Shown here: in pieces, positions 1 through 11,118 of the stretch
Position numbering within the stretch: position 1 is the first letter of the stretch
Layout of the letters: each line of letters starts with the position of its first letter
IMG/VR virus record: IMGVR_UViG_3300022821_000550
Coordinates: 1 to 11,118 of that record
Length of the DNA: 11,118 nucleotides
Reading direction: 5' to 3' (one strand)
From: a virus
The notes under the pieces: model-generated
The model's database searches: none
What the model was told of the DNA's origin: nothing
The model's input: only the letters and a program-made list of their open reading frames with translations
Program-made: the position numbers and the translations under genes

Positions 1-127
1 AATATATAATATAAGTGCTGTGTTTATTAATACTTCATTCATCATCTTAGTTACCCCACATTAGTGTGACTGGTATCATATCCATTGGTGATACCACATA
101 GTCTTGACGTGTTCCACGCTTAACTAT
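1..127. repeat. Left copy of an exact 127-nt terminal duplication, identical to 10992..11118
   Basis: Base-by-base comparison: positions 1..127 match 10992..11118 at an offset of 10991 with no mismatch. The unique length is therefore 10,991 bp. Confidence 0.95.
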
Positions 128-523
128 CTTTGCTGTTCCATCTTCTATCATTCTATTTAATATATCTCTTGTAGCCATTCCATCTACTGTCAATACTGTA
201 TCATCTTCATTAATCTGTGCGTGTATATAAATATCATGCTTTGGTTTCTGAAACCACATATCTTCTCCTTTAGTAGTCTTTAAGTCTATAGTCTTTTCAT
301 TAAATATAAAGTCTGGTTCATTCCAACCTTTACCTTCTTGTATAAACTGTATCCACTTGTGAGATATATTCTTTTCAGTTAAGTATCTATGTAGCACAAT
401 CTCTCCAAGTACACCAATATAATTGTTACTGCATTTAAACTTCTCATGCTTCTTAACACTATCAAGTTTATCTCTTAACTCTTTAGCTTCTTTTACTTCC
501 TCTTCTTTAATATATATATTCAT
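47..523 (-). CDS. PD-(D/E)XK superfamily nuclease-like protein (158 aa from the ATG at 523)
   Basis: The track ORF 47..538 starts at a TTG. The ATG at 521-523 is preceded by GGAGGAG about 7 nt upstream. The protein shows the motif order GEIVLHRYL (helix Glu), then EPDFIF (PD), then IDLKT (DxK), which is typical of the restriction-endonuclease-like fold. The specific family was not determined. Confidence 0.6.
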   Translation of the reverse strand: MNIYIKEEEVKEAKELRDKLDSVKKHEKFKCSNNYIGVLGEIVLHRYLTEKNISHKWIQFIQEGKGWNEPDFIFNEKTIDLKTTKGEDMWFQKPKHDIYIHAQINEDDTVLTVDGMATRDILNRMIEDGTAKIVKRGTRQDYVVSPMDMIPVTLMWGN

Positions 524-538
524 TGTTAACTCCTCCAA

Positions 539-892
539 GTTAGTTTTCTTTACTATACTATTATAATGTATGTTCTACTATATAAATGTTTCGCTTTTAG
601 TGTGGTTATTACCACAATAACAGTTATATATTTAACTACACGTTTATTATATTATCTAATAAACATCTGTATCAGCTGTTCCACCTGTCTTCTTTTTCTC
701 TTCTATATACTCTTATGACACTACGCGTTTATATACTTATGTATTTTAATGTAGTAATTACCACACTGACGCCACTTGCCATAGGAGCTCCATACAGTCC
801 ATCCTGTGGACGCATATTTCAGCCATACTAAGTGTTGTCTAATCAGAGAACGTCCACGTATGAGCTTGTATGGACGTCTCAGAGACACGTCA
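539..892 (-). promoter_or_regulatory. 354-nt non-coding region between the end of the structural operon and the nuclease gene; candidate promoter, origin or structured RNA
   Basis: No credible ORF is present. The left part (about 540-700) is very AT-rich, with a TATAAT on the minus strand at 565..560 and a 6-bp-arm hairpin TGTGGT-tatt-ACCACA at 601..616. The right part (about 720-890) is visibly more GC-rich and holds interlocking inverted repeats. Confidence 0.5.
789..877. repeat. Cluster of GTCCA/TGGAC inverted repeats with mutually exclusive pairings
   Basis: GTCCA (797-801) and TGGAC (807-811) form one inverted repeat with a 5-nt spacer. ACGTCCA (850-856) and TGGACGT (871-877) form a 7-bp stem with a 14-nt spacer. 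GTGGACG (806-812) is also the exact complement of CGTCCAC (851-857). TCCATAC (789-795) is complementary to GTATGGA (868-874). A nested imperfect stem GTTGTCT-aatc-AGAGAAC lies at 834-850. Confidence 0.7.
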
Positions 893-1447
893 CTAATTGA
901 ATTCAACCACTTGATAATTAAGAGTTATTGTATCATTACTTGCCTTTCTAATAGCAGTAACTGTTGTTGCATCTGTTAACTCAACATATGCTAATACGTC
1001 ATCACAAACATCAGTTGTACTATTTGCATAACCACTGTAGTTTCCAAGATAAGATATAATACTTTTAGTTGTATCTACTGAATCTATTGTATCTGTATTA
1101 CTTACACCAGTTGCTACTATTGTACCTGATTGGTTAGACTTAAGTACTCCACTATTAAATTCAATAACACAGAAAGCTATAAAACCATCATTACCATATG
1201 ATTCTTGTTTGCCTGTTATAGTAGTTGAATTAGTTAATTCTATTGTTGGTAAAATATTATCCCAATCACTACCACTGTCACCATTTGCTGTCCACCCTGT
1301 CATTAATAACAAAGTATCTGCTGTAGTTACTGAATCTATTGTTGCAGTGTATGAAACATCATTACCCATTGTAACTACTCCATGTTGTATATTCTTAATA
1401 GGGCTACCACCACCTGTTGCTTGTCCAAAAATAATTCCTTGTGCCAT
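893..1447 (-). CDS. Beta-rich virion protein with an internal tandem domain duplication (184 aa); possible fibre-tip or receptor-binding protein
   Basis: The ATG at 1447 is preceded by AAGGAGGT 7 nt upstream and lies 2 nt after the fibre gene stop. The two halves align: T.TIDSV.T ... ELT..TT.T ... V.EFN recurs at about aa 35-97 and aa 118-184, and both halves end in EFN. The function is inferred only from the position after the fibre gene. Confidence 0.75.
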   Translation of the reverse strand: MAQGIIFGQATGGGSPIKNIQHGVVTMGNDVSYTATIDSVTTADTLLLMTGWTANGDSGSDWDNILPTIELTNSTTITGKQESYGNDGFIAFCVIEFNSGVLKSNQSGTIVATGVSNTDTIDSVDTTKSIISYLGNYSGYANSTTDVCDDVLAYVELTDATTVTAIRKASNDTITLNYQVVEFN

Positions 1448-1449
1448 AT

Positions 1450-3348
1450 TTATACCTCCTTTGTGATGAAATAATCAAACGTTATGTCTGTTGATTCAGC
1501 ACTTGTACTTGTTATTGTAAAACTACCTGCTGCACTTACTACACTCCATGTACCAGCTGGGTCTGAGCCTGTTATACTAACTATAACTAAACTTGCTGCT
1601 GTACAAAATGCATCTGTAAATGTTTGAGCTGTGTCATTGTCTGTAAACGTACTATTACTTTGTTTGAATGATGCGTTACCAGAACCTTTAGCTGTGTTAG
1701 CTGTGATTGCACTAGCTTGTGCTCCACTAATTGTTGTTGGATTATTAATTAAATCACCATAGTCATAGTCCCAATCAAATGATACCTTACCATTGTTAGT
1801 AGATATATTAGATTCCATTGTATCTAAGTTAACTGCTTGAGTAACAGAGATATGTCCTACTTTAGTTGAACTTGTACTATCATAACTAATCTTATCTGTA
1901 TTTAAACCAACTGCTGTGACTAAAGTACTGTGGTCTGCACCAGATGCATCTCCTCTATGAGTTGTATTAAGTCCTATTGCTGTTGTGTTAGTACCTATAC
2001 CAGATATATCTTGGTCTCCTGTGTTAGAACCTGATGTGTCTGCTAGTCTTATTTCTTCTGCTGCAATATCAACACCATCAACTAAGCCTGTTACTGCTAA
2101 GTCACCTGTTACTGTTACTAATGGTGTTGCGCCATCAATAGATATTCTTTTAGTTTCTACTGTACCATCATTAACATAAAAGTCCATGTCACCATCTAAG
2201 AATTTGTTCTTAATGTCAGTGACACCAGAATTATTTTGTAATAATACTAACTTGTTTGCTTCTGTTGCATTAGCCATTACTGCAATGTCAGCATATTGTC
2301 CAGCTGGTGATTCAACGTGGAATCTCATTGATTGTCCTGCTGTCTTACCTGTTAAGTGACAGTGTATATTTGCATCTGATTCATCTATTCCAATGCATGC
2401 TTCATGTGCGGTGTTAGTTGTCTTAAAACATATCCCAGGGTTACTAGCATTAGCTGTCTCTATTTTTAATAGAGCATCATTCTTTGTTATATTAATATCA
2501 CTTGTTACTGGACTACCAAGAGTAGTATCACTACCAGCTGCGTGTAACGCTGCCTTCTCTACGTCTGTAACATAGTTATCATCATCAGTCTTAGCTGGTT
2601 CAAAACCTGTGTGTCCTGCACTAGCATAATCTAAATTTGAAAGTGCTGTGTGGTCAGTTACACCACTTGCTGTTGTGCCATAATATAAACCATCTACTCC
2701 ATTAGTTCTAACATAGTAGTCTGTTGTTCCATATCCACTTGGTGTATCAGTTAAGTCTTCAAATGTTGTTGGTGCTGCTGTACCTTGTATACCTTGTATA
2801 CCAGTGTCACCAGTTATACCTTGGATACCTTGAATACCCTGTTCACCAGTTATACCTTGGATACCTTGAATACCCTGTTCACCAGTTGCTCCAGCTGTAC
2901 CTTGTGGTCCTGGTACTGTACTATCTGCTCCAGTTGCTCCAGTGTCACCAGTTACTCCTATTTCACCTTGCGGTCCAGTGTCACCTGTTACACCAATAAC
3001 TCCTTGCGGTCCAGTGTCACCTGTTACACCAATAACTCCCTGTATACCTTGTATACCCTGTATACCTTGTTCACCAGTATCTCCTTGTGGTCCTGCTGTA
3101 CCTTGTGGACCTTGTATTCCATCTACTCCTGCTGTACCTTGTGGACCTGGTACTCCTGGCATTGAGTCAACATAAGCTTTATTAGTAATATCATTACCTT
3201 GAACTGGAACTTTTTCAATAGTTCCTTCTTGAGTGTTAAGTACTTTCTTAATAGCGTAGTCTTCTGTCTGTTCAATAGACTTACGCCCTTCTTGAAATGT
3301 ATATTTCTTTGTTGGTTGTACTTTAAATATTTTATTTACATTTGTCAT
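1450..3348 (-). CDS. Collagen-like tail fibre protein (632 aa)
   Basis: The ATG at 3348 is preceded by GGAGAGGT. Residues 65-142 form 26 uninterrupted GXY triplets, followed by an STVP break and then 15 more triplets (aa 147-191). The C-terminal 440 aa are Ser/Thr/Asn/Gly/Asp-rich with short internal repeats (IGTNTTAIGLNTTH, VGLNTDKISYDS), as in phage fibres. Collagen repeats in phage fibres are established knowledge. Confidence 0.85.
   Translation of the reverse strand: MTNVNKIFKVQPTKKYTFQEGRKSIEQTEDYAIKKVLNTQEGTIEKVPVQGNDITNKAYVDSMPGVPGPQGTAGVDGIQGPQGTAGPQGDTGEQGIQGIQGIQGVIGVTGDTGPQGVIGVTGDTGPQGEIGVTGDTGATGADSTVPGPQGTAGATGEQGIQGIQGITGEQGIQGIQGITGDTGIQGIQGTAAPTTFEDLTDTPSGYGTTDYYVRTNGVDGLYYGTTASGVTDHTALSNLDYASAGHTGFEPAKTDDDNYVTDVEKAALHAAGSDTTLGSPVTSDINITKNDALLKIETANASNPGICFKTTNTAHEACIGIDESDANIHCHLTGKTAGQSMRFHVESPAGQYADIAVMANATEANKLVLLQNNSGVTDIKNKFLDGDMDFYVNDGTVETKRISIDGATPLVTVTGDLAVTGLVDGVDIAAEEIRLADTSGSNTGDQDISGIGTNTTAIGLNTTHRGDASGADHSTLVTAVGLNTDKISYDSTSSTKVGHISVTQAVNLDTMESNISTNNGKVSFDWDYDYGDLINNPTTISGAQASAITANTAKGSGNASFKQSNSTFTDNDTAQTFTDAFCTAASLVIVSITGSDPAGTWSVVSAAGSFTITSTSAESTDITFDYFITKEV
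2776..3156 (-). repeat. Collagen GXY-coding repeat tract with exact 36-nt tandem duplications
   Basis: This tract encodes aa 65-191 of the fibre. An exact 36-nt unit repeats at 2808-2843 and 2844-2879, with 8 nt of a third copy to 2887 (ITGEQGIQGIQG). A second exact 36-nt unit repeats at 2966-3001 and 3002-3037 (GVIGVTGDTGPQ). Shorter 9-nt ccttgtata-type repeats occur near 2781-2800 and 3040-3070. Confidence 0.9.
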
Positions 3349-3374
3349 AGTTTTACCTCTCCATTGTTAAAATT

Positions 3375-3394
3375 AAAAAAAAGGGATTTCTCCC
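3375..3394 (-). terminator. Weak intrinsic terminator or attenuator between the capsid genes and the fibre gene
   Basis: The minus strand reads GGGA-GAAA-TCCC followed by TTTTTTTT. That is a 4-bp stem with a GNRA-type tetraloop and a T8 tract, placed 9 nt after the stop of the 61-aa ORF. The stem is short, so partial termination is more likely than full termination. Confidence 0.4.
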
Positions 3395-3402
3395 AAAATT
3401 AT

Positions 3403-3588
3403 TTAACTTTCTTCTACTGAAGTTATTGCTTCCCAAGATGCTGCTGCTGCTGCTTTAGCTTTACAAATTGATAACTTACCTAAGTCACTATCAAAAACAA
3501 TAGTGCCTACTTCTGCTATCATTGTATTCTTAACTGCTGTAGTAACAATAGGGATAATCAAAGCCTGTGGGTTTAATATATCTGCCAT
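3403..3588 (-). CDS. Hypothetical small protein (61 aa) downstream of the major capsid gene
   Basis: The ORF starts at an ATG 10 nt after the capsid gene stop. It shares the strand and packing of its neighbours and begins MAD, like several other genes here. No recognisable motif was found. Confidence 0.55.
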   Translation of the reverse strand: MADILNPQALIIPIVTTAVKNTMIAEVGTIVFDSDLGKLSICKAKAAAAASWEAITSVEES

Positions 3589-3597
3589 ATTAAATAC

Positions 3598-4470
3598 CTA
3601 CTTTCTTGTATTTGTAATTTTACAAATAGCGTTAGGGCTAGTTACTTGTACTTGTCCTAATTCAAATGCTCTAATTGTAGTTTTAATTCCAGGGTCATCA
3701 AGTTGTAATACTGTTAAAGGAGTTGCTTGTTTCCAAGTCATTGCTTCTTTAGCTACTACTACGTATGCTACATCAGGAACTGTTACTTCTAATGCTTCAG
3801 TTACCATAATCTTTAGTCCTGCAATTTGACCAACTACTCCGCTTGAAACAACATCTGCTGTTTTAAAACTAGGGTTGTTAGTTAACTTACTGTTAGCTAA
3901 AAGATTAGTATAATCTGTACCATTTAAACATAGATATCCTTGTCCGTTTAAAGCATTGATATTGTCTGCTCTAAGTAATTGGATAGCTTGTAAGATGTTT
4001 AAGATAGGGTCTCTGTTTGCTACAGTTGCACTGTCCCATTCATCTCCTGCTCCAATAACTACTGAGTTACCAGCGTTTGCTAGCATACTTGCTGAGATAG
4101 TATTATCTACTGATAATGCTACTGCTCTACCTAATCTTAGTAAAGTTCTTTGAATCATTGGTATGTTGTTAAGTCTTGCGTCTTCATATGAAATTACTCC
4201 TTCCATACCATACTTCTCATTCAATGAGCTTACTTTAGTCCAGCTTACTTCTCCATAAGGAAAGTTTGCTAGTCTTGGTATACCTTTAACTGCTGCTGTA
4301 GTACCACCTTCTAAATCAGTGTTAGTTTCTCTGTAATAAGTTTCAGTCCATGCGTTTGAACTATCTACTGTACATAGAGTTTTTAATTTATATTCCATTA
4401 GTGCAATTGCTTTAATTGCTCCGTCTATATATTCTTTTCTTAAATCTGCTTCTCCTGTTGTGTCTGCCAT
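3598..4470 (-). CDS. Major capsid protein, probably HK97-fold (290 aa)
   Basis: The size is typical of small HK97-like capsid proteins. The gene lies immediately downstream of a DUF2190-like decoration gene and downstream of the portal and a scaffold-like gene, with only 1 nt between the upstream stop and its ATG. The fold was not verified; the call rests on synteny and general sequence character. Confidence 0.7.
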   Translation of the reverse strand: MADTTGEADLRKEYIDGAIKAIALMEYKLKTLCTVDSSNAWTETYYRETNTDLEGGTTAAVKGIPRLANFPYGEVSWTKVSSLNEKYGMEGVISYEDARLNNIPMIQRTLLRLGRAVALSVDNTISASMLANAGNSVVIGAGDEWDSATVANRDPILNILQAIQLLRADNINALNGQGYLCLNGTDYTNLLANSKLTNNPSFKTADVVSSGVVGQIAGLKIMVTEALEVTVPDVAYVVVAKEAMTWKQATPLTVLQLDDPGIKTTIRAFELGQVQVTSPNAICKITNTRK

Positions 4471-4471
4471 T

Positions 4472-4879
4472 TTAAATCAATACCCTCACTGCAATAACTT
4501 CATCATTGCCTGCTGTCTCTAATGCTTTTCCAACTAGTTCAGCTATATCTTGTGCGCCTGCTTCATCTGCTGCTGCTATTAAATTTGCACCACCAAGTTT
4601 AACTACGTTACCTAATGTAACTGCTGCTGAAGTACATTTTAAGTCAAAGATACCATTAGTATAAACTGCTAGTTCTGTTTGACCATCATTAGCTACTTTC
4701 TCACTTGCTGCAATCCCACAAAAGAATTGTCCTTCTGCTGAGCTTACTGCCATTGTTCTTGGGTCTGCTGATAAATACATCAGAGTTCCCTTTGGTATTG
4801 CATTTGCGTCTGCAACTGTATACCTGATAGGGTCTCCCCTATTACCTAGTAATTCTATGATTACTGCTTCATTTGCCAT
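4472..4879 (-). CDS. DUF2190-like head decoration or capsid accessory protein (135 aa from the ATG at 4879)
   Basis: The track start at 4906 is a TTG. The ATG at 4877-4879 is preceded by AAGAGGT 8 nt upstream. The sequence pattern (G..L....., FCGIAA...., G.....V.T.GIFDLK, G..V......., VGKALE.A...E.I.VRV) matches my memory of the DUF2190 family, which commonly sits just upstream of phage capsid genes. Confidence 0.6.
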   Translation of the reverse strand: MANEAVIIELLGNRGDPIRYTVADANAIPKGTLMYLSADPRTMAVSSAEGQFFCGIAASEKVANDGQTELAVYTNGIFDLKCTSAAVTLGNVVKLGGANLIAAADEAGAQDIAELVGKALETAGNDEVIAVRVLI

Positions 4880-4880
4880 T

Positions 4881-5030
4881 TTATTTAACCTCTTTGTCTT
4901 TTTCAAGACTGTCTATTTTCTGTTGTATAGTATTAATATACAGTTCTGCTTGTTCCAAATCTATTGTTGCTTGTTCTTGTACTTTCTTCCAAGCTGCAAT
5001 ACCATCTTCCCATTGAGTTTTATTCATCAT
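4881..5030 (-). CDS. Small coiled-coil protein (49 aa), missing from the ORF track
   Basis: Hand translation gives MMNKTQWEDGIAAWKKVQEQATIDLEQAELYINTIQQKIDSLEKDKEVK. AAGGAG lies 9 nt upstream of the ATG. The start overlaps the stop of the 80-aa gene by 11 nt, and the stop lies 1 nt before the decoration-gene ATG, so it exactly fills an otherwise empty gap. Confidence 0.5.
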   Translation of the reverse strand: MMNKTQWEDGIAAWKKVQEQATIDLEQAELYINTIQQKIDSLEKDKEVK

Positions 5031-5262
5031 TGTTAAGTGCTCCTTCAATTGCTGTACCTTTAAAGTAGTTCTTCATATCCATCTTATCTTTTTCTTCTTT
5101 GGATAATACAACTTCAGGTGTTCCTGCTTCTGATTGACCGCCTAACAGACGTCTTGCTTCCATCTTCTCTAGTCTTTTGACCAGTTCTTCATTCACTTTG
5201 TTTGCGTGTTCTAATCTTTGAGCTGCTTTTTCTGCTTGCTCTATCATACTTTGTTCAGTCAT
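5020..5262 (-). CDS. Alpha-helical, charged protein (80 aa); possible scaffolding protein
   Basis: The ATG at 5262 is preceded by GAGGA. The sequence is rich in E, K, A, Q and L with heptad-like character (EQAEKAAQRLEHANKVNEELVKRLEKMEARR). The position upstream of the decoration and capsid genes fits a scaffold. Function is inferred from position and composition only. Confidence 0.6.
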   Translation of the reverse strand: MTEQSMIEQAEKAAQRLEHANKVNEELVKRLEKMEARRLLGGQSEAGTPEVVLSKEEKDKMDMKNYFKGTAIEGALNNDE

Positions 5263-5273
5263 TTTCTATTTCC

Positions 5274-5405
5274 TCATATTAGTGACATAGCTATACATGC
5301 TATTGTCATTATAAAACCATACGCACCATAAATTAGTTTTGTATGTGTCTTAACTGTTCCATTTGTGTAGTCTAACTTCTGACTAATAGATTCTAATTTT
5401 TCCAT
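5274..5405 (-). CDS. Small single-pass membrane protein (43 aa), missing from the ORF track
   Basis: Hand translation gives MEKLESISQKLDYTNGTVKTHTKLIYGAYGFIMTIACIAMSLI. AAGGA lies 6 nt upstream of the ATG. The C-terminal 20 residues are hydrophobic, the length of a transmembrane helix. The TGA stop sits inside the RBS region of the next gene. Confidence 0.5.
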   Translation of the reverse strand: MEKLESISQKLDYTNGTVKTHTKLIYGAYGFIMTIACIAMSLI

Positions 5406-5440
5406 TATATCCTTGTTAGTATATTCTACTATGAATTTAT

Positions 5441-7024
5441 TCATTGTAACGTTGCCTTCTGTACTTCAGTTAACTGTGCATATGGTACACCAAATGTTTC
5501 CATTGCTAAGTCTTCAAGACTTTGTTGTCCAGGTACTAATGGTTCTTCATCAGATTCTGTTACTGTTTCACCACCAGTTGACAATAAACCAAAGTTCAAT
5601 GTACTTGGTGCTTCTTGTTTGGTGTTTCCACCTTCTCCACTACCAAAGAAAGAACCTCTTCCAGTTGCTGCTATTGCTTCATTATAAAGCTTAGTCACTG
5701 CGCTGAACTGATTGTTAGGGTCTAAAGCAAAAGCTCTAATCTCTGCATCATTTAATAGTTCTTCAGCTGTAGGTCTTTCTCTTAATATTCTGTCTGCCAG
5801 TTCTTGTCCAAAAGCTAGTCTGTCAGTATCCACTGCGTTTTCTTGTGCATTCTGTAAGTCATCTTGTAATTGAAACTTGTCAGGATTCTCATCTTGATAC
5901 TCTTGAATCTCTTCAGGAGTTGCTGTTCCATCAACAATTCTTCTTTGCATCTCTAAAGTAATCTCTTGTTGAGTTGCTGCTTCTTCAGTTGCGTCAATTT
6001 CTTTATCAGTCTTATCAATGAAATGTTTAAATTCTAATGCTGTACTAGCAAAGTAGTTATAAACTGGTATCTTAGATTGAATACTTCCTTGAAACTCAAT
6101 CATTTCTCCCATCATTTCTCTAAGTTCTTTTGCACCTTCAATGTCTCCAAGTTGTAATAACTTAGATGCACCAATACTTAACTGTTGCAAGTCATCCTGA
6201 ATTGCGTTTTGTGTTCCACTGTATGAAAAGTAAGTTGCTAAACCAACACCAGTTACTGTTGAACCCCAACCAAGTAGACTTCTCCAATTGCTTGGACTGA
6301 TTGCTTGAGCTGTTTGAGTAAATATTTGTGATACTCTCTTAGCTTCTGCTGTATTCTTAAGTGCTTTACCACCATTGACTACTTTACCAACTTGAAATAA
6401 TTCAGTTCCACTTGCTATTGCTTGTCCTTTAGTTCCATACTTACCAGCTATTGCTGTTAACTTATTAACAATTGCTTGTGCTTTAGATAATAAATTTCCA
6501 GTTTTAAATGAATTAGCTGCTGCACCACCAGCACCACCAACTCCAAGTAAAGCCATATTACCAACATAGTTAGTAAGCCTTCCAAGTTGTGTAAGTGGTT
6601 CTTGTGTTGTTAAGTCTCTATTGCCAGGGTCTTCTTTGTTTAATAATCCAGTTGTAAACTCACCAACTGCTCTTTGAACTCTATTCTGTGGGTTTGGATT
6701 AGCTGTGAATGTTCCTTGTCCATCAGTATATTCAGATACTTGTGAATCTTGAAATGCTTTAATCTGTGCATCTGCTTCTGGACTTCCAACTCTTGTAAAA
6801 CCTCTTGAACTTCCACCTGAATTTCCAGTGCTTGTGCTTGGGTTTGGAGTACTTTGAGCAATTTCTCCACCAGTTGATGGAGAATTTCTTGGAGGTACTA
6901 CTACAGGGTCTACTGGTTTTCTTGAGTCTTTTACTTCACGTGGTGTTCTACCACCTGGTAAGTAACCACCAAGTTTATCATCAACCTTTTTGTATGTGTC
7001 TTTAATTCTGTCAAAAAATCCCAT
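5441..7024 (-). CDS. Large virion-associated protein (527 aa) with a disordered N-terminus, two Gly/Ala-rich hydrophobic segments and an acidic helical C-terminus; possible ejection, pilot or tape-measure-like protein
   Basis: The track start at 7048 is a TTG. The ATG at 7022-7024 has a perfect AAGGAGGT 7 nt upstream and follows the portal stop by 1 nt. Hydrophobic segments are YVGNMALLGVGGAGGAAANSF and SLLGWGSTVTGVGLATYFSY. No enzymatic motif was seen. The coding call is strong and the functional call is weak. Confidence 0.8.
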   Translation of the reverse strand: MGFFDRIKDTYKKVDDKLGGYLPGGRTPREVKDSRKPVDPVVVPPRNSPSTGGEIAQSTPNPSTSTGNSGGSSRGFTRVGSPEADAQIKAFQDSQVSEYTDGQGTFTANPNPQNRVQRAVGEFTTGLLNKEDPGNRDLTTQEPLTQLGRLTNYVGNMALLGVGGAGGAAANSFKTGNLLSKAQAIVNKLTAIAGKYGTKGQAIASGTELFQVGKVVNGGKALKNTAEAKRVSQIFTQTAQAISPSNWRSLLGWGSTVTGVGLATYFSYSGTQNAIQDDLQQLSIGASKLLQLGDIEGAKELREMMGEMIEFQGSIQSKIPVYNYFASTALEFKHFIDKTDKEIDATEEAATQQEITLEMQRRIVDGTATPEEIQEYQDENPDKFQLQDDLQNAQENAVDTDRLAFGQELADRILRERPTAEELLNDAEIRAFALDPNNQFSAVTKLYNEAIAATGRGSFFGSGEGGNTKQEAPSTLNFGLLSTGGETVTESDEEPLVPGQQSLEDLAMETFGVPYAQLTEVQKATLQ

Positions 7025-7025
7025 C

Positions 7026-8123
7026 TTAGATACCTCCTTCATTTGCAAAGCTTGGTACTAACTTGCTTGACTGGTTTAAGTCTTGCTCTTCACTACCATC
7101 TTTTCTATCATCACTTAACAAATTGTTTTGTAAGCTTGCAGGGAATTCTAAGTTAATCTCTAACTGAACTTGTGCTAGTATTTGTTCTTCAATGTATAGT
7201 TGTTCTTCTTCAATTGTCTGTTCAAAAGCTAGATATGATATCTGTGCTGCTGACTGAGTTAGTTCTTGTGAGCCACCAATGATTATTTGTGGTACACCAA
7301 CTGCTTGATAGAAGTATTGGTTAAGTAATTGAATCCAAGGCATTGGATTAAGACTTGAGTTACTTGGCACTGACGCCAGTTCAGTCTCTACTGAGCCTTT
7401 TGGAATAAATATATCTTCTCCTTCTCCTTTACTTGCTGCTACTTTAGCTTTGAAAGTATTAATCTTAGTTGGAACGTCTGTGTCTAGTTTCCAAATTCTT
7501 ACAGGATATATATTTCTATGTAAGAGCTTCTTATAATCAGCCATTGCTTCATTACGTGCTAAGATTATCCATTCTACTGATTCTATAATAGATACGCCAT
7601 GTATTTCATCAGCTATTCTATTTCTACAAAGATGTAAAATCTTCTCTGGATTGAATTTAATACTACCACTCTTTGCTTTTTGTTCATATCTCTTAATAAT
7701 ACCTTTGGAGTCTACTATAACTTTAATAGTACCAGGGTCTATTGGTTTGATATTAATCAGTGTTTCACCATCTTTTATGATTTCAGCAAAAGCGTCACCA
7801 TAAATATGATATTCTCTAATCAAGTTTTCTAAAATACTATTGAATGAATCTTTTCCAAAACCAGTCATAGTATCTATGGTTAAACCTGTAACCTCATCTG
7901 TTGAAATACCTTTACCAATTGTCCAAGTTGCTTTTGCATCTATAGCCATTTTAAGTTCAGGTACTGATTTGTAATATCCTAAGTACTGTGCTGCATTAGC
8001 GTTCTGATATTCTGTTTCTTTATCTCCAGTAGCTGCGTCAGTTGTCTGACTAGACACTGAGAAATCAGTAATAACAGATGCTTGTGCTCCAGTCTTTGTG
8101 GAATCTATTTCTGTGTATGCCAT
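7026..8123 (-). CDS. Portal protein (365 aa)
   Basis: AAGGAGA lies 9 nt upstream of the ATG. The sequence has HK97-type portal character: Y..S.....AI..KA....G.G, GDAFAEII, ILHLC..R.ADE.HG.S, an acidic helical C-terminal part, and GVPQII.GG. The position in the head module supports the call. Confidence 0.8.
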   Translation of the reverse strand: MAYTEIDSTKTGAQASVITDFSVSSQTTDAATGDKETEYQNANAAQYLGYYKSVPELKMAIDAKATWTIGKGISTDEVTGLTIDTMTGFGKDSFNSILENLIREYHIYGDAFAEIIKDGETLINIKPIDPGTIKVIVDSKGIIKRYEQKAKSGSIKFNPEKILHLCRNRIADEIHGVSIIESVEWIILARNEAMADYKKLLHRNIYPVRIWKLDTDVPTKINTFKAKVAASKGEGEDIFIPKGSVETELASVPSNSSLNPMPWIQLLNQYFYQAVGVPQIIIGGSQELTQSAAQISYLAFEQTIEEEQLYIEEQILAQVQLEINLEFPASLQNNLLSDDRKDGSEEQDLNQSSKLVPSFANEGGI

Positions 8124-8136
8124 TTTTTATTTCTCC

Positions 8137-8511
8137 TTATTCTTCCCAACCAATTATAGTTACATCATAATGAGCACCACTTGCTGGTGATAGGAAAATT
8201 CCTATATCAAACTGTAACGGTGTTGTAAAATTAACAATATTATTAATATCATCTGATGCTGAATTACCAATAAACTTGATTGTGCCTGCTGTACTTGTTC
8301 CATCATAGAACGTTTCAGTATTTGGTGAACCACCAAGACATGTATACATAATTGAAGTAACGTACAATGTTCTTCCAGTTGTAACTGTATATATTGAAAC
8401 AGCTTGAACATCACTAGCAGTAGTATCTACTTGAGTACTACCAGATTGTTGCCATCTTGGTTTCAAGCTATCTTCACTATCACCAAATATTGAATCTACA
8501 GTAAGTGCCAT
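8137..8511 (-). CDS. Hypothetical beta-rich structural protein (124 aa)
   Basis: The ATG directly abuts the TAG stop of the upstream gene, with GAGAGGT 7 nt upstream. The sequence is Ser/Thr/Gly-rich and probably all-beta. No motif was recognised. Confidence 0.65.
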   Translation of the reverse strand: MALTVDSIFGDSEDSLKPRWQQSGSTQVDTTASDVQAVSIYTVTTGRTLYVTSIMYTCLGGSPNTETFYDGTSTAGTIKFIGNSASDDINNIVNFTTPLQFDIGIFLSPASGAHYDVTIIGWEE

Positions 8512-8880
8512 CTAAGCAACCTCTCTAATAAAGTCTGAAACTTTCTTATCTCTAAGTATTTGTAAGTCTCTAAGATATGCATCTCTAAGAATGTTAATCA
8601 TATCTTCTGCTTCAATACGTGAAGTATAACCACTCATGTCATATTGAATAACATAAATTGCTGCTATACATGTTGCACATTCTTTTAATATGCCTTTTGT
8701 ATCATCATTAAGTGTTGAGTAAACATCACTAAAGTTAAATCTACATACTGAGTTAATATAACTCTCTGCCTCTGTCATGTATTGATTAACGTAAGCTTCT
8801 GCTTTACTTGTTGCGCTAGCTCCTGTGCCAGCTTTTCTTTCTACTTCTGCTGTTGTCGCAAAAATACCTGTATCTGCCAT
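8512..8880 (-). CDS. gp6-like head-tail connector (adaptor) protein (122 aa)
   Basis: The N-terminal region ATTAEVERKAG...SKAEAYVNQYMTEAESYINSVCRFNF and the helical remainder resemble HK97 gp6 / SPP1 gp15-type adaptors. A GAGGT RBS lies within the end of terL. Confidence 0.5.
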   Translation of the reverse strand: MADTGIFATTAEVERKAGTGASATSKAEAYVNQYMTEAESYINSVCRFNFSDVYSTLNDDTKGILKECATCIAAIYVIQYDMSGYTSRIEAEDMINILRDAYLRDLQILRDKKVSDFIREVA

Positions 8881-8882
8881 TT

Positions 8883-10202
8883 TTATTCTACCTCATAATA
8901 TAAGTTTAAACTCTTATCTCTAACACTCCACGCTGCACGGATAATTCCCTCAGCTATATGAGTATATCTACCATGAATTCTTACTTCATTAGTATTTCTG
9001 TTAGTTTCATATATAATAGACTTAAGACTAGCAAAAATATCAGTGTCTTTTAGAAACTGAATCTCTTTACGTTCCATCATTTTAAGTAAATTAATATATA
9101 AGTCTTCTTTTAAAAGCTTTCTTTTTCTGCTTGAGTCAACATCAATAGCCCTTCTTGCGTTATTGATGGCAACTACTTTTCTTTTAGTTTGTTCATGTAT
9201 AAGTAACTGGTCAAAGACTGCTACGCCTAAACCACCATCATCAATATACATCTTTTTGAAATCATACTCTAAATCTAATTCTAATATCTTATCAATTGTA
9301 TCAGTTGTTAACGTGTACTTGTGTACAATATTATCTCTTTGGAGATAATTATCTCCTTTTCTTTGAAATATCTCAAATGTAGTCTCATCACCACCCATTC
9401 TGGCAACGTCTACACCCAAATAATACTCTCCAGCTGGTGTGGAGGAAGAAACCCTCTGGAGAGTTTGGGATGATTCTATAAGCTCATCAGGAAATAGTTG
9501 TCCTAGTTCCTCTAAAAACTGTGCTAAATATTGTTGTGAATATTGAAATTCAGTCATACGTGTCTTCTCACGTGCTAGATGTTGCATCATCATAGCTCTC
9601 TGAGGCTCTGGTCTTTCTTCAGCAACCTGTTCAGAGTTCACATGAAACGTCTTAAAGCCCATACTTGTATCAGTATAAGCTTCATAGAAGTAACCTTGAG
9701 CTGCATTTGGTGTGCTTAATAACCATAGCTTACCACCAGTTGTTAATAACATTGGAGTAATACTTGACCAAATAGCCTCTGGAAGATATGCTGCTTCATC
9801 AGGGATAATAATATCCACTGTCATACCAAGAACTCCAAGACCATATTGACCTACTGCTTTAGTAACAATACTACTACCATTGTTAGTAAATACTTTATGT
9901 TTAGTTGGCTTCTTAAGCCCTTTCATAATATAAGATTTATAATTGTCAAATAAATATAACATAATCTTCTGCAACATTCTCTCTGCTTGGTCTTCTGTTA
10001 CAGAAATAATAAGAACGTGCTTGTTTTTGTTATTAATAATATACTCAGCAGCCTTAATAGCTACTATCTGACTCTTTCCTACCTGTCTACCAGAGCAAAT
10101 GCATAGATTACCCTCTGCTACCAGTACTTCTTTCTGCCATTTGTCCAGAGTGAAGCCATAGTTGGGTTCTTTGCTTGGTTGTTTAGTAGATTTTTTAGTC
10201 AT
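8883..10202 (-). CDS. terL: Terminase large subunit (439 aa)
   Basis: The ATPase domain shows Walker A SGRQVGKS (aa 37-44), Walker B VDIIIPDEAAY and the coupling motif LLSTP. The RNase H-like nuclease domain shows YLGVDVARMGGDETTF and YIDDGGLG. No Shine-Dalgarno sequence precedes the ATG (CACTCAAAAATTATAAAAA-ATG). Confidence 0.9.
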   Translation of the reverse strand: MTKKSTKQPSKEPNYGFTLDKWQKEVLVAEGNLCICSGRQVGKSQIVAIKAAEYIINNKNKHVLIISVTEDQAERMLQKIMLYLFDNYKSYIMKGLKKPTKHKVFTNNGSSIVTKAVGQYGLGVLGMTVDIIIPDEAAYLPEAIWSSITPMLLTTGGKLWLLSTPNAAQGYFYEAYTDTSMGFKTFHVNSEQVAEERPEPQRAMMMQHLAREKTRMTEFQYSQQYLAQFLEELGQLFPDELIESSQTLQRVSSSTPAGEYYLGVDVARMGGDETTFEIFQRKGDNYLQRDNIVHKYTLTTDTIDKILELDLEYDFKKMYIDDGGLGVAVFDQLLIHEQTKRKVVAINNARRAIDVDSSRKRKLLKEDLYINLLKMMERKEIQFLKDTDIFASLKSIIYETNRNTNEVRIHGRYTHIAEGIIRAAWSVRDKSLNLYYEVE

Positions 10203-10306
10203 TTTTTATAATTTTTGAGTGTAAGATGTTACTCATTATACTCTTAACTCTTCAAAAGCGCATCAACGCAGTTGTATTTGTTGTGTTACTACCACCCTAT
10301 CCACCT

Positions 10307-10338
10307 ATTGCATAGCTGGTACAGCCATTGCATAGCTG
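10307..10338. repeat. Two exact 12-nt direct repeats ATTGCATAGCTG spaced 20 bp start to start
   Basis: The copies are at 10307-10318 and 10327-10338, and each is preceded by CC(T). A TTGCAT half-copy recurs at 10376-10381. Confidence 0.85.
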
Positions 10339-10345
10339 TTGAGTA

Positions 10346-10373
10346 TGAGTAACAAGTAAATAAGTGTTACTCA
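10346..10373. repeat. Perfect 9-bp-arm inverted repeat TGAGTAACA / TGTTACTCA with a 10-nt spacer
   Basis: The arms are at 10346-10354 and 10365-10373. The same 9-mer TGTTACTCA also occurs at 10227-10235, giving three copies in total (two direct, one inverted). Confidence 0.85.
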
Positions 10374-10545
10374 GTTTGCATTCCATAAAGGGCATACATA
10401 TGATGTTACCAAGCGTGCAACTTTACTATGTAAAGTTGAATGTTTGTATGCATTTAAATAGTTATGTATTTTATGTGAATGACAAACCATTATCACCATT
10501 AACTTAATATATCTCTTAGTACTCTTATTAGTATGTGTGCGCTTT

Positions 10546-10725
10546 TTACTGCACATTCTCCTCTGACCACTCACCAGTCCATCTGTTCTTGTTCTTATAT
10601 GTGTCAAACTTCTTAGCATAGTTACCAGCTATCTTGTTATTCTTTGTTTGAAAACACTCTCTACAAGTATGACCACAGCAAGGTTCTTGACAAACCCTGC
10701 ATAATCTATCTTTTGGTCTACTCAT
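10546..10725 (-). CDS. Cys-rich zinc-ribbon-like small protein (59 aa), missing from the ORF track
   Basis: Hand translation gives MSRPKDRLCRVCQEPCCGHTCRECFQTKNNKIAGNYAKKFDTYKNKNRWTGEWSEENVQ. It has a CxxC-x3-CC-x-H-x-C-xx-C cluster followed by a basic tail. Its ATG overlaps the end of the upstream ORF (GATGAGTAG), and AGGAGTG lies upstream. Confidence 0.6.
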   Translation of the reverse strand: MSRPKDRLCRVCQEPCCGHTCRECFQTKNNKIAGNYAKKFDTYKNKNRWTGEWSEENVQ

Positions 10726-10864
10726 CTTCTAAGTCACTCCTATCATAGATTGGTATCAAGTTTACATATGTTCCAACTGCTAAGTTAGCGCCTTTTGGAA
10801 TTGTTATCAGTAAATTATCATCTCTATGTTTATTCTTCTGTAATCTTACTCTTGCTATAATCAT
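10718..10864 (-). CDS. AbrB/MazE/SpoVT-like swapped-hairpin DNA-binding protein (48 aa), missing from the ORF track
   Basis: Hand translation gives MIIARVRLQKNKHRDDNLLITIPKGANLAVGTYVNLIPIYDRSDLEDE. The ITIPK...VG..V.L pattern resembles the AbrB-type looped-hinge-helix fold. AGGAGGT lies 8 nt upstream of the ATG. The gene shares an ATGA start/stop overlap with the upstream micro-ORF. Confidence 0.55.
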   Translation of the reverse strand: MIIARVRLQKNKHRDDNLLITIPKGANLAVGTYVNLIPIYDRSDLEDE

Positions 10865-10956
10865 TTGTTCTTACCTCCTATCATTAATATAATCTCATCT
10901 AGTTTGTCACAAGTTCTTTGTATCTTCTTCTCCAACTCTATTAATTCTGCTTTCAT
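10861..10956 (-). CDS. Micro-ORF, 31 aa helical peptide (alternative in-frame ATG at 10980 gives 39 aa)
   Basis: Hand translation gives MKAELIELEKKIQRTCDKLDEIILMIGGKNK. GAGGAATAAA lies upstream of the ATG. Its TGA overlaps the ATG of the AbrB-like ORF. The ORF is short, so the coding status is uncertain. Confidence 0.4.
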   Translation of the reverse strand: MKAELIELEKKIQRTCDKLDEIILMIGGKNK

Positions 10957-11036
10957 TTTATTCCTCTTACTAGCTTCCATACTGTGCTTACAATATATAA
11001 TATAAGTGCTGTGTTTATTAATACTTCATTCATCAT
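10953..11036 (-). CDS. Possible 27-aa hydrophobic micro-protein spanning the circular junction
   Basis: Hand translation gives MMNEVLINTALILYIVSTVWKLVRGIK. The ATG follows the nuclease TAA by 1 nt, with GGGGT upstream. The TGA overlaps the ATG at 10956 in an ATGA arrangement. This ORF is mutually exclusive with the 39-aa extension of the next ORF. It is very short, so this is speculative. Confidence 0.25.
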   Translation of the reverse strand: MMNEVLINTALILYIVSTVWKLVRGIK

Positions 11037-11118
11037 CTTAGTTACCCCACATTAGTGTGACTGGTATCATATCCATTGGTGATACCACATAGTCTTGACG
11101 TGTTCCACGCTTAACTAT
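10992..11118. repeat. Right copy of the exact 127-nt terminal duplication (circular-closure overlap or direct terminal repeat)
   Basis: Identical to 1..127. It contains the 3' end of the nuclease gene and the start of the 27-aa micro-ORF, so the coding sequence continues across the junction. Confidence 0.95.
11038..11118 (-). CDS. 3' fragment of the PD-(D/E)XK nuclease gene (duplicate of 47..127 within the terminal overlap)
   Basis: It lies inside the exact 127-nt duplication. It is the same gene as 47..523 seen a second time, not an independent locus. Confidence 0.8.
   Translation of the reverse strand: MVKRGTRQDYVVSPMDMIPVTLMWGN

Follow-up and report, generated by a model that had tools for sequence, protein, structure and literature searches.

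How can a virus that encodes a head and a DNA packaging motor manage with some 11 kb and with no recognisable genes for replication, lysis or integration? The question is raised by IMG/VR virus record IMGVR_UViG_3300022821_000550, of which positions 1 to 11,118 were analysed here (the window, 11,118 nt). An initial annotation, made from the letters alone, had described a complete tailed-phage-like genome of about 11 kb with a head and packaging module, and both the closure of the contig and profile searches agree with it. The window is the complete genome of a virus whose host is probably an archaeon, a unit of 10,991 bp that is either circular or circularly permuted. The explanation that we prefer, and to which we give about an even chance, is an autonomous, podovirus-like archaeal virus that has no tail tube and is replicated by the host replisome.

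The closure is seen directly at the ends of the contig.

1-127, no strand: terminal overlap, a duplicate of 10992-11118 that closes the contig as a circular or circularly permuted unit

The copy is exact and leaves a closed unit of 10,991 bp. A twin genome (L001), independently assembled from an ENA sample, closes on a 141-nt overlap and is 99.9-100% identical to the window outside the fibre gene. No open reading frame (ORF) of at least 40 aa spans the window's closure junction, save one implausible plus-strand ORF. The credible ORFs are all minus-strand, and the GC and AT skews are uniform. Read along the coding strand, the array begins with ORFs of 39, 48 and 59 aa and a 343-nt leader, followed by the genes for the large terminase subunit (TerL), a 122-aa protein, a 124-aa protein, the portal and a 527-aa protein. 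Next come proteins of 56 aa (with a C-terminal transmembrane helix), 80 aa and about 50 aa, the cement protein and the capsid protein, and then a 61-aa protein, a 632-aa fibre, a 184-aa protein, 354 nt of non-coding DNA and a protein of 158 or 163 aa. The span 47-10202 given to the genome's content by the initial annotation does hold the genes placed there, but it omits 10203-10991, with the three small ORFs and the leader.

The overlap of 127 nt has the length of a typical assembler k-mer, as would be expected if a repeat had induced a false closure and the real genome were larger. Relatives of the window speak against such an artefact. In IMG/VR there are 52, with capsid-protein identities of 49-82%, and none exceeds 12.1 kb. 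Seven of these 52, together with the ENA twin, are self-closing, with overlaps of 45, 87, 123, 127 or 141 nt; across the family, closure is seen at k = 45, 87, 99, 123, 127 and 141, so that independent assemblies agree on the size of the unit whatever the k value. Scanning metagenome contigs from JGI, TARA and ENA with a profile added 330 relatives, and wherever the unit length could be measured it was 10.9-12.2 kb. Among the best 80 of these 330, longer contigs wrap around the unit: one of 14,923 nt overlaps itself by 3,710 nt (an 11,213-nt unit) and one of 13,498 nt by 2,290 nt (11,208 nt), and contigs of 12,692 and 12,352 nt reduce to units of about 11,115 and about 12,151 nt, respectively. 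In a search of protein databases, the capsid proteins formed at least 1,435 clusters at 90% identity, and the longest contigs carrying them pile up at 11-12 kb. Neither host flanks, nor an integrase, nor an integrated copy was found among more than 380 related contigs, and no relative is flanked by foreign genes. Misassembly of a fragment is thus rejected on the independent closures and the unit length of 10.9-12.2 kb, and we consider it extremely improbable. The concern in the initial annotation that close relatives might prove to be pieces of larger genomes, or might be integrated, is answered by the same contigs: the units are all of 10.9-12.2 kb, the longer contigs are wrap-around or chimeric, and none is integrated.

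Three contigs of unusual form were seen in the family. L136 (Ga0209434_1000427, 20.5 kb) is a head-to-tail chimera of two family genomes, with two TerL and two portal genes and about 67% DNA identity. L138 (ERZ27247128 k141_899099, 16 kb) carries extra, partly duplicated fibre-like genes, two opposite-strand genes and no replication gene. L007 (IMGVR_UViG_3300033121_000080), of 10,050 nt, has the full gene set and a perfect 77-nt inverted terminal repeat (ITR) instead of a direct overlap; the ITR could be an assembly artefact or could mark a linear form.

The head, packaging and fibre genes of the window are as follows.

8883-10202, minus strand: TerL, with an ATPase and an RNase-H-like nuclease domain (PF03237, 6e-11; phrog_2, 6e-35)
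7026-8123, minus strand: portal (Portal_Mu, 5e-9; phrog_9232, 2e-23)
3598-4470, minus strand: major capsid protein, HK97 fold of the T7-like type (PF25209, 6e-8; phrog_1650, 2e-15)
4472-4879, minus strand: cement or decoration protein, 135 aa from MANEAV (PF09956, 3e-8; found in 52 of 52 loci)
1450-3348, minus strand: 632-aa fibre, with collagen-like G-X-Y repeats at about residues 64-200 and a unique C-terminal part (PF01391, 2e-19; tail-fibre PHROGs)
8512-8880, minus strand: conserved 122-aa protein encoded between the TerL and portal genes, a tentative head-tail adaptor (phrog_541, E = 0.016; found in 35 loci)
5020-5262, minus strand: 80-aa charged helical protein, presumed scaffold (position, composition and conservation in 50 loci; no family match)

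Pfam and PHROGs profiles bear out the TerL, portal, decoration protein, capsid protein and collagen-like fibre named in the initial annotation. Its adaptor and scaffold genes are present too, but those two labels are weak. That of the adaptor comes from the single phrog_541 match; a PHROG scan of the 35 orthologues of the 122-aa protein gave no match, the family profile had no usable match in the PDB, and hhalign against the psiM100 connector gave a probability of 0.2. That of the scaffold comes from position and composition. The best PDB match of the capsid-protein family profile is the capsid protein of the T7-like cyanophage P-SCSP1u (7e-5). Against cultured phages the window proteins have remote matches only, with TerL, portal and major capsid protein at 24-30% identity. 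With an HK97-fold major capsid protein, a TerL with ATPase and nuclease domains and a portal, the genome has the hallmarks of Caudoviricetes (Duplodnaviria). The fibre gene has periodic 9-nt repeats in its DNA, and relatives of the fibre's C-terminal part were found neither in IMG/VR nor among cultured phages. In the G-X-Y region (window 2763-3158) the window and twin L001 differ by a repeat-length polymorphism, the fibres being 632 and 620 aa long, respectively.

The absences reported in the initial annotation hold up. Among the window proteins no family for a polymerase, primase, helicase, Rep, integrase, endolysin, small terminase subunit (TerS), tail tube or tape measure was found in Pfam, PHROGs or NCBIfam, and profile and structure searches of the hypothetical ORFs yielded no replication initiator, polymerase or endolysin. 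The search was extended to the accessory proteins of all 52 IMG/VR loci, which fall into 120 clusters, with one representative per cluster scanned against Pfam and PHROGs; no replicase, integrase, TerS or lysin was found there. Pfam matches in these clusters were solely to fibre domains, staphylococcal nuclease (SNase) domains, zinc fingers and one DUF, and PHROG matches were to tail-fibre families, nucleases, one 'holin' and one 'protease', the last of which, its member not traced, we suspect to be of the fibre-chaperone type. A tube, sheath, tape measure or podovirus nozzle or knob was recognised neither in the window nor in the 120 clusters; the only recognisable parts of a tail are fibres and spikes, and neck proteins that escape recognition may be present. 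Searches of the window for tRNA genes and for Rfam families, including pRNA, were negative.

The gene set that persists across the family is similarly lean. All-against-all ORF clustering gives a conserved core of TerL, the 122-aa protein, an SNase-like protein (in about half of the loci), one or more variable beta-rich proteins, the portal, a post-portal protein of 400-600 aa, small transmembrane or zinc-ribbon proteins, the scaffold-like protein, cement and capsid proteins, variable fibres, a variable end module, DNA-binding-like ORFs and a long leader. Fibre domains in the relatives include collagen, BclA_C, F5/8 and PKD. Since both spike and fibre genes are hypervariable, the family encodes a fast-diversifying adsorption apparatus of its own.

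The non-coding DNA of the family points to the domain of the host. The 8-mers most enriched on the coding strand of family intergenic DNA are oligo-T runs, TTTATATA, TTTAAATA and AAACATTT. The motif TTTAWATA is nine-fold denser in intergenic than in coding DNA, and in intergenic DNA three-fold denser than its own reverse complement. Its distances to the next start codon fall into two classes, 25-34 nt and 42-48 nt, the latter with a GGTGA or GAGGT Shine-Dalgarno sequence in between. At 25-48 nt upstream of starts it occurs 23 times in 236 unique windows, against 1.5 +/- 1.2 (maximum 6) in shuffles. Over 68 unique sites the upstream flank is A/C at -7, G/A at -6 and A at -5 (69%), -4 (84%) and -3 (91%), which makes the family promoter consensus VRAAA-NN-TTTAWATA. 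An A-rich element followed by a TATA box is the archaeal arrangement of B recognition element (BRE) and TATA, and 25-34 nt is the spacing expected for leaderless archaeal mRNAs. In 638 kb of DNA, 109 instances of the BRE plus TATA pattern are on the coding strand and 4 on the opposite one. It recurs at orthologous places, upstream of the cement gene (16 cases), the 122-aa gene (12) and the nuclease gene (3), and one or more strict sites are present in 27 of 38 near-complete genomes. As the loose pattern is unspecific in AT-rich DNA, it is position, strand and recurrence at orthologous places, and not raw counts, that carry the promoter argument. The elements of the window itself are these.

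579-593, minus strand: perfect BRE/TATA element CGAAACATTTATATA, upstream of the nuclease gene and in accord with the family consensus
539-892, minus strand: 354-nt non-coding region with 27-nt operator-like repeats at 595-621 and 744-770, a variant TATA element at 722-748 and an RNA fold of z = -3.1; a candidate regulatory or origin region
10203-10545, minus strand: 343-nt non-coding leader of the TerL operon, with a variant TATA element at 10447-10473 and an RNA fold of z = -2.6; a candidate promoter, pac site, origin or operator

The element at 10447-10473 is a second copy of the variant TATA element and lies about 245 nt upstream of TerL. The leader also contains a 17-nt direct repeat (10302-10318 and 10322-10338, the copies spaced 20 nt) and three inverted-orientation copies of TGAGTAACA/TGTTACTCA. 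A long leader occupies this place in relatives also, but with DNA that is not conserved among them. A GTAACAC repeat was not above chance across the window. The 27-nt repeats in the region 539-892 have a palindromic core, GTGGTAATnAC, and lie just upstream of the TATA elements at 579-593 and 722-748, respectively.

From the position, strand and recurrence of these promoter motifs we consider an archaeal host probable. A bacterial host, for example a member of the candidate phyla radiation (CPR) such as Parcubacteria, or of Bacteroidota, would make the virus a minimal bacteriophage and the BRE/TATA-like motifs coincidental promoter elements of AT-rich DNA. Such a host would suit the Shine-Dalgarno-type sites GGAGG and GGTGA, which are common in the family, and the distant matches of TerL, portal and major capsid protein, which are to bacterial phages; structural relatives of the nuclease described below are abundant in uncultured Caudovirales. 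Whole family contigs are, moreover, labelled Parcubacteria and Bacteroidota in metagenome-assembled genomes (MAGs) at NCBI, but for a viral contig of 11 kb MAG binning is unreliable in either direction. The signals of bacterial transcription are missing as well: sigma-70 sites are not enriched (49 against 43.8 expected), there are no intrinsic terminators at gene ends, and TTGACA is depleted in family intergenic DNA. Coincidence would have to account for the invariant A-rich element that precedes TTTAWATA by 2-3 nt and for a spacing that fits leaderless archaeal transcripts, and no endolysin was found in the window proteins or in the 120 accessory clusters. We judge a bacterial host unlikely. 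The archaeal-type promoters, which the initial annotation passed over, change the frame in which the missing genes are seen. With an archaeal host it is far less odd that a murein endolysin and recognisable replication genes are missing, and other small archaeal viruses are also without detectable replication proteins (10.1101/2025.02.15.638363).

Within the archaea, a DPANN host is only a lead. A search of 185,579 species genomes gave one match, a whole contig of 10,241 nt in a Pacearchaeota MAG. Whole family contigs of about 10-12 kb (L055, NZCX01000037.1; proteins P0070 and P0111) are deposited in MAGs labelled Pacearchaeota, Bacteroidota and Parcubacteria and are probably mis-binned. The practical lesson is that binning has probably put entire contigs of these viruses wrongly into MAGs of CPR, DPANN and Bacteroidota.

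A nuclease is encoded by an ORF at the far end of the array that the initial annotation also passed over.

47-523 (or 538), minus strand: PD-(D/E)xK nuclease, 158 aa from the ATG at 523 or 163 aa from the TTG at 538 (motif, AlphaFold2 and Foldseek)

A GGAGG Shine-Dalgarno sequence precedes the gene. In a word-index homologue search, five homologues were found for this protein (and three for the 527-aa protein). Five orthologues share an invariant E46, P75-D76 and D85-L-K87, i.e., the E...PD...D-x-K signature. The AlphaFold2 model has a predicted local distance difference test (pLDDT) score of 87.6 and contains the alpha-beta-beta-beta-alpha-beta core, so that by its modelled fold the protein is a PD-(D/E)xK nuclease. 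The top Foldseek match in the PDB, over the full length, is fusellovirus D212 (2w8m; probability 0.97) at 10% identity and a TM-score of about 0.38, followed by Cas4 SSO0001, the nuclease domain of a restriction enzyme and lambda exonuclease. The closest predicted structures, at TM-scores of about 0.7, are dozens of uncharacterised Caudovirales proteins in BFVD. D212 has the PD-(D/E)xK fold in common with the 158-aa protein, while the function of D212 itself is not established. The family profile of the nuclease had no usable match among PDB sequences. As a PD-(D/E)xK nuclease, the protein is not a replicase.

The nuclease is one of three forms of the end module. It is present at five loci; at seven others (L009, L018, L020, L022, L025, L038 and L039) it is replaced by a pair of proteins of 56 and about 265 aa; and one genome has an 85-aa PD-(D/E)xK-type protein that looks Hjc-like by eye. 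The protein of about 265 aa matches nothing in Pfam or the PDB; by eye its N-terminal region is winged-helix-like, and it could be a replication initiator or a regulator. Given that relatives carry another PD-(D/E)xK-type or an SNase-like nuclease, the window's nuclease may serve to resolve or process replication and recombination intermediates before packaging. The SNase-like gene (PF00565) lies between the 122-aa and portal genes at 25 of the 52 IMG/VR loci (e.g., L009, L018, L025, L035 and L048) and is absent from the window.

Two further proteins, of 527 and 124 aa, had been put forward in the initial annotation as possible sources of novel replication or tail functions.

5441-7024, minus strand: 527-aa post-portal protein; its N-terminus is basic and disordered, hydrophobic segments rich in Gly/Ala and long helices are present, and PS-x-LNFGLL lies near the C-terminus
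8137-8511, minus strand: 124-aa beta-rich protein, presumed neck or spike, with an N-terminal M-A-L-x-V/F..F-G and a C-terminal GWEE

The 527-aa protein has no family match in Pfam, PHROGs or NCBIfam. Its AlphaFold2 model, made from a shallow alignment of four sequences, has a pLDDT of 42; it is all-alpha, with long helices after a disordered N-terminal stretch of about 110 aa, and is too poor for a fold search. Orthologues occupy the same post-portal place at 35 or more loci and share the basic low-complexity N-terminus, the Gly/Ala-rich hydrophobic segments, a coiled coil and the motif PS-x-L-x-F-G-L-L. This motif is present in 40 distinct post-portal proteins, at the very C-terminus in most and 40-70 aa before it in the rest; in the window it is at about residues 473-481. 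These features and the model, which has no enzyme-like fold, suggest an internal or ejection protein of the virion, of a pilot or tape-measure-like kind. The 124-aa protein has neither a family match nor, by family profile, a PDB match. In relatives its slot is taken by LamG/ConA-like, right-handed beta-helix and other beta-rich proteins, which places it in a variable, spike-like set. A disordered and helical protein and a member of a spike-like set do not look like suppliers of new replication functions, and that suggestion found no support. At least 17 distinct variable beta-rich proteins start with M-x-L-N/D-F-G..L-F (e.g., L009, L018, L036 and L045). This N-terminal motif is strikingly like the C-terminal motif of the post-portal protein, and the common motif may be a docking or processing peptide.

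Built on the gene identities, the nuclease fold, the closure and the promoter motifs, the cycle that we infer for an autonomous archaeal virus would run as follows. The archaeal RNA polymerase of the host would read the single-strand gene array from the BRE/TATA promoters, and the host replisome would copy the genome from an origin in 10203-10545 or 539-892. Concatemeric or branched intermediates would be processed by the PD-(D/E)xK nuclease, and TerL would drive the DNA through the portal into a small capsid assembled on the scaffold and stabilised by the cement protein. Packaging would probably be by headful, which would fit the wrap-around assemblies. The virion would have no tail tube; a short neck of the 122- and 124-aa proteins would bear the hypervariable spikes and fibres, and the helical, hydrophobic 527-aa protein could be ejected from inside the virion to form a conduit for the DNA. 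In an archaeal host a murein lysin would not be needed for release, which small transmembrane proteins may mediate.

Several points weigh against this reading. Strict BRE/TATA sites are missing from 11 of the 38 near-complete genomes, and the main operon of the window has TATA-like elements of the variant type only. The loose pattern occurs by chance 4+2 times in 16.8 kb of a staphylococcal phage of 30% GC, while the archaeal controls psiM2 and psiM100 have 2 and 0 matches. The MAG labels of whole family contigs conflict (Pacearchaeota, Parcubacteria and Bacteroidota) and were not used as evidence of the host. The adaptor and scaffold are weak assignments, and the two places named for the origin are candidate regions only. 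Finally, a helper virus could provide precisely the functions that are missing here, namely a replicase, lysis and a tail.

The last point leads to the alternative that the window is a satellite virus, either of the MiniFlayer type or a capsid-forming phage-inducible chromosomal island (cf-PICI) stripped of its integration and replication modules, with its own capsid, packaging motor and fibres, to which a larger co-infecting virus gives replication, lysis and perhaps a tail. Replication, lysis and tail-tube functions are just those missing, and the genome size is within the range of P4 and PICIs. MiniFlayer, a satellite from Streptomyces, is documented with a capsid, terminase, portal, adaptor and fibre and without an integrase or a primase or replicase (PMC10690885), and the weak phrog_541 match leaves room for the 122-aa protein to be a siphovirus-type connector that accepts a foreign tail. 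Yet no lead to a helper or to viruses of the same host was found: scans with the 27-nt promoter-like element (in IMG/VR) and with the fibre C-terminus (in IMG/VR and cultured phages) came back empty, and no larger viral contig with shared sequence turned up. As neither an integrase nor an integrated copy is seen in more than 380 contigs, the element cannot wait in the host for a helper unless both enter together. The family has diversified spikes and fibres and host-type promoters of its own, and small archaeal viruses commonly lack recognisable replication genes (10.1101/2025.02.15.638363, on other archaeal viruses). We hold a satellite to be possible but rather unlikely. Of the three options in the initial annotation, then, a reduced podovirus-like virus relying on host replication is best supported, a capsid-forming satellite is a live rival, and novel replication proteins among the unassigned ORFs are not borne out.

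Comparison with known systems bears on both. MiniFlayer (and MulchRoom; PMC10690885) resembles the window in its small genome, in its TerL, portal, major capsid protein, scaffold, head-tail adaptor and short fibres, and in having no integrase and no recognisable primase or replicase; MiniFlayer particles are podovirus-like, as is proposed for those of the window. MiniFlayer differs in having TerS and an HNH protein, a linear genome with direct terminal repeats (DTRs), a bacterial host and a demonstrated helper, and there is no sequence kinship. The window, in turn, has no TerS or HNH, closes as a circle, carries archaeal-type promoters and has no known helper. The cf-PICIs, at about 10-15 kb, likewise have a capsid, portal, connector and terminase and no tail, but they are integrated and have an integrase, replication module, prohead protease, TerS and HNH, none of which is in the window. 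An integrated satellite of the cf-PICI or P4 type was rejected on these absences and on the lack of host flanks in more than 380 related contigs. A gene transfer agent or an encapsulin was rejected also, as TerL, portal, fibres and a closed genome speak against either.

Among cultured tailed phages the smallest are astrithr of Salmonella (11.6 kb), P1 of Mycoplasma (11.66 kb) and the likewise small phi29-like Picovirinae; their genomes are comparable to or slightly larger than the window, and their tail tube is short or missing. Astrithr has a phi29-type polymerase. The records of Mycoplasma P1 and of the larger phages phi29 and 44AHJD include a DNA polymerase, those of phi29 and P1 a terminal protein and terminal repeats, and those of phi29 and 44AHJD lysis genes. 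The window has none of these genes; its TerL is a classical one with a nuclease domain, and it closes as a circle. A phi29-like, protein-primed phage was rejected because there is no polymerase match, no pRNA or other Rfam family, and a direct overlap in place of ITRs; the one large unassigned protein, of 527 aa, is predicted to be disordered and helical. The T7-like head module, as in P-SCSP1u, matches the window by capsid profile; the window has no prohead protease, and scaffold-type assembly and an internal-protein conduit are presumed for it. The NCBIfam T7-type TerL model scores 29.7 bits against the window's TerL (cutoff 150), over residues 32-80 only. Relative to T7-like podoviruses the window lacks an RNA polymerase, DNA polymerase, primase-helicase and recognisable nozzle or adaptor, and it is about four times smaller.

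HK97-encoding metagenomic contigs of less than 11.6 kb that close on DTRs (the 'twilight zone') have been catalogued (bioRxiv 10.1101/2025.06.18.659913), and the window's family is probably inside that catalogue. The focus of that study is a temperate clade that is encapsulin-like and has no portal, and from which the family differs in having a portal, TerL, fibres and archaeal-type promoters and in lacking lysogeny genes. In a literature search of incomplete coverage we found no published description of this family with portal and terminase, or of promoters of archaeal type in it.

What the family represents can be put with graded confidence. It is a very large, uncultured family of global distribution, whose 10.9-12.2-kb genomes have nearly only head, packaging and adsorption genes, which means that such a module persists either as an independent replicon or as a satellite of a new kind. 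That it is a self-sufficient lineage of archaeal viruses of about 11 kb, possibly in ultra-small DPANN, with HK97 machinery and without genes for a tail tube, replication, lysis or integration, is a tentative view to which we give somewhat less than an even chance. The smallest archaeal tailed viruses are, to our knowledge, of about 26 kb. If archaeal and self-sufficient, the virus would fall below the smallest tailed phages in culture (11.6 kb) and would be less than half as large as that archaeal minimum. An archaeal host would widen the size range of archaeal head-tailed viruses more than two-fold and would offer a simple system for how a virus recruits the archaeal replisome. Two open questions are touched: how small a virus of the tailed-phage type can be, and the matter of the 'missing' small HK97 capsids.

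The remaining features of the window are small or of restricted distribution.

893-1447, minus strand: 184-aa beta-rich protein 3' of the fibre gene, present only in the window genome and its twin (no family match)
3403-3588, minus strand: 61-aa protein after the capsid gene, kept in 6 close relatives
4881-5048, minus strand: small protein of 48-55 aa, kept in 7 loci
5274-5444, minus strand: 56-aa protein with a C-terminal transmembrane helix, from its sequence
10546-10996, minus strand: three small ORFs, for a 59-aa zinc-ribbon protein (CxxC...CxxC), a 48-aa protein that is AbrB-like by eye and a 39-aa coiled coil, with no family match

From its place in the variable fibre module, the 184-aa protein is presumed to be associated with the fibre or with adsorption. 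Small transmembrane proteins analogous to the 56-aa protein in relatives gave one PHROG holin match and YvrJ matches, and the 56-aa protein is possibly holin-like or a membrane-active component of the virion. Two more minus-strand ORFs, at 721-906 (61 aa) and 10371-10619 (82 aa), look spurious: they have an odd composition and homologues in the twin genome only, and they sit in the non-coding regions, where they run into promoter-like elements or into the 59-aa gene. Both are unlikely to be genes. The three small ORFs at 10546-10996, at the head of the array, presumably encode regulators or DNA-binding proteins.

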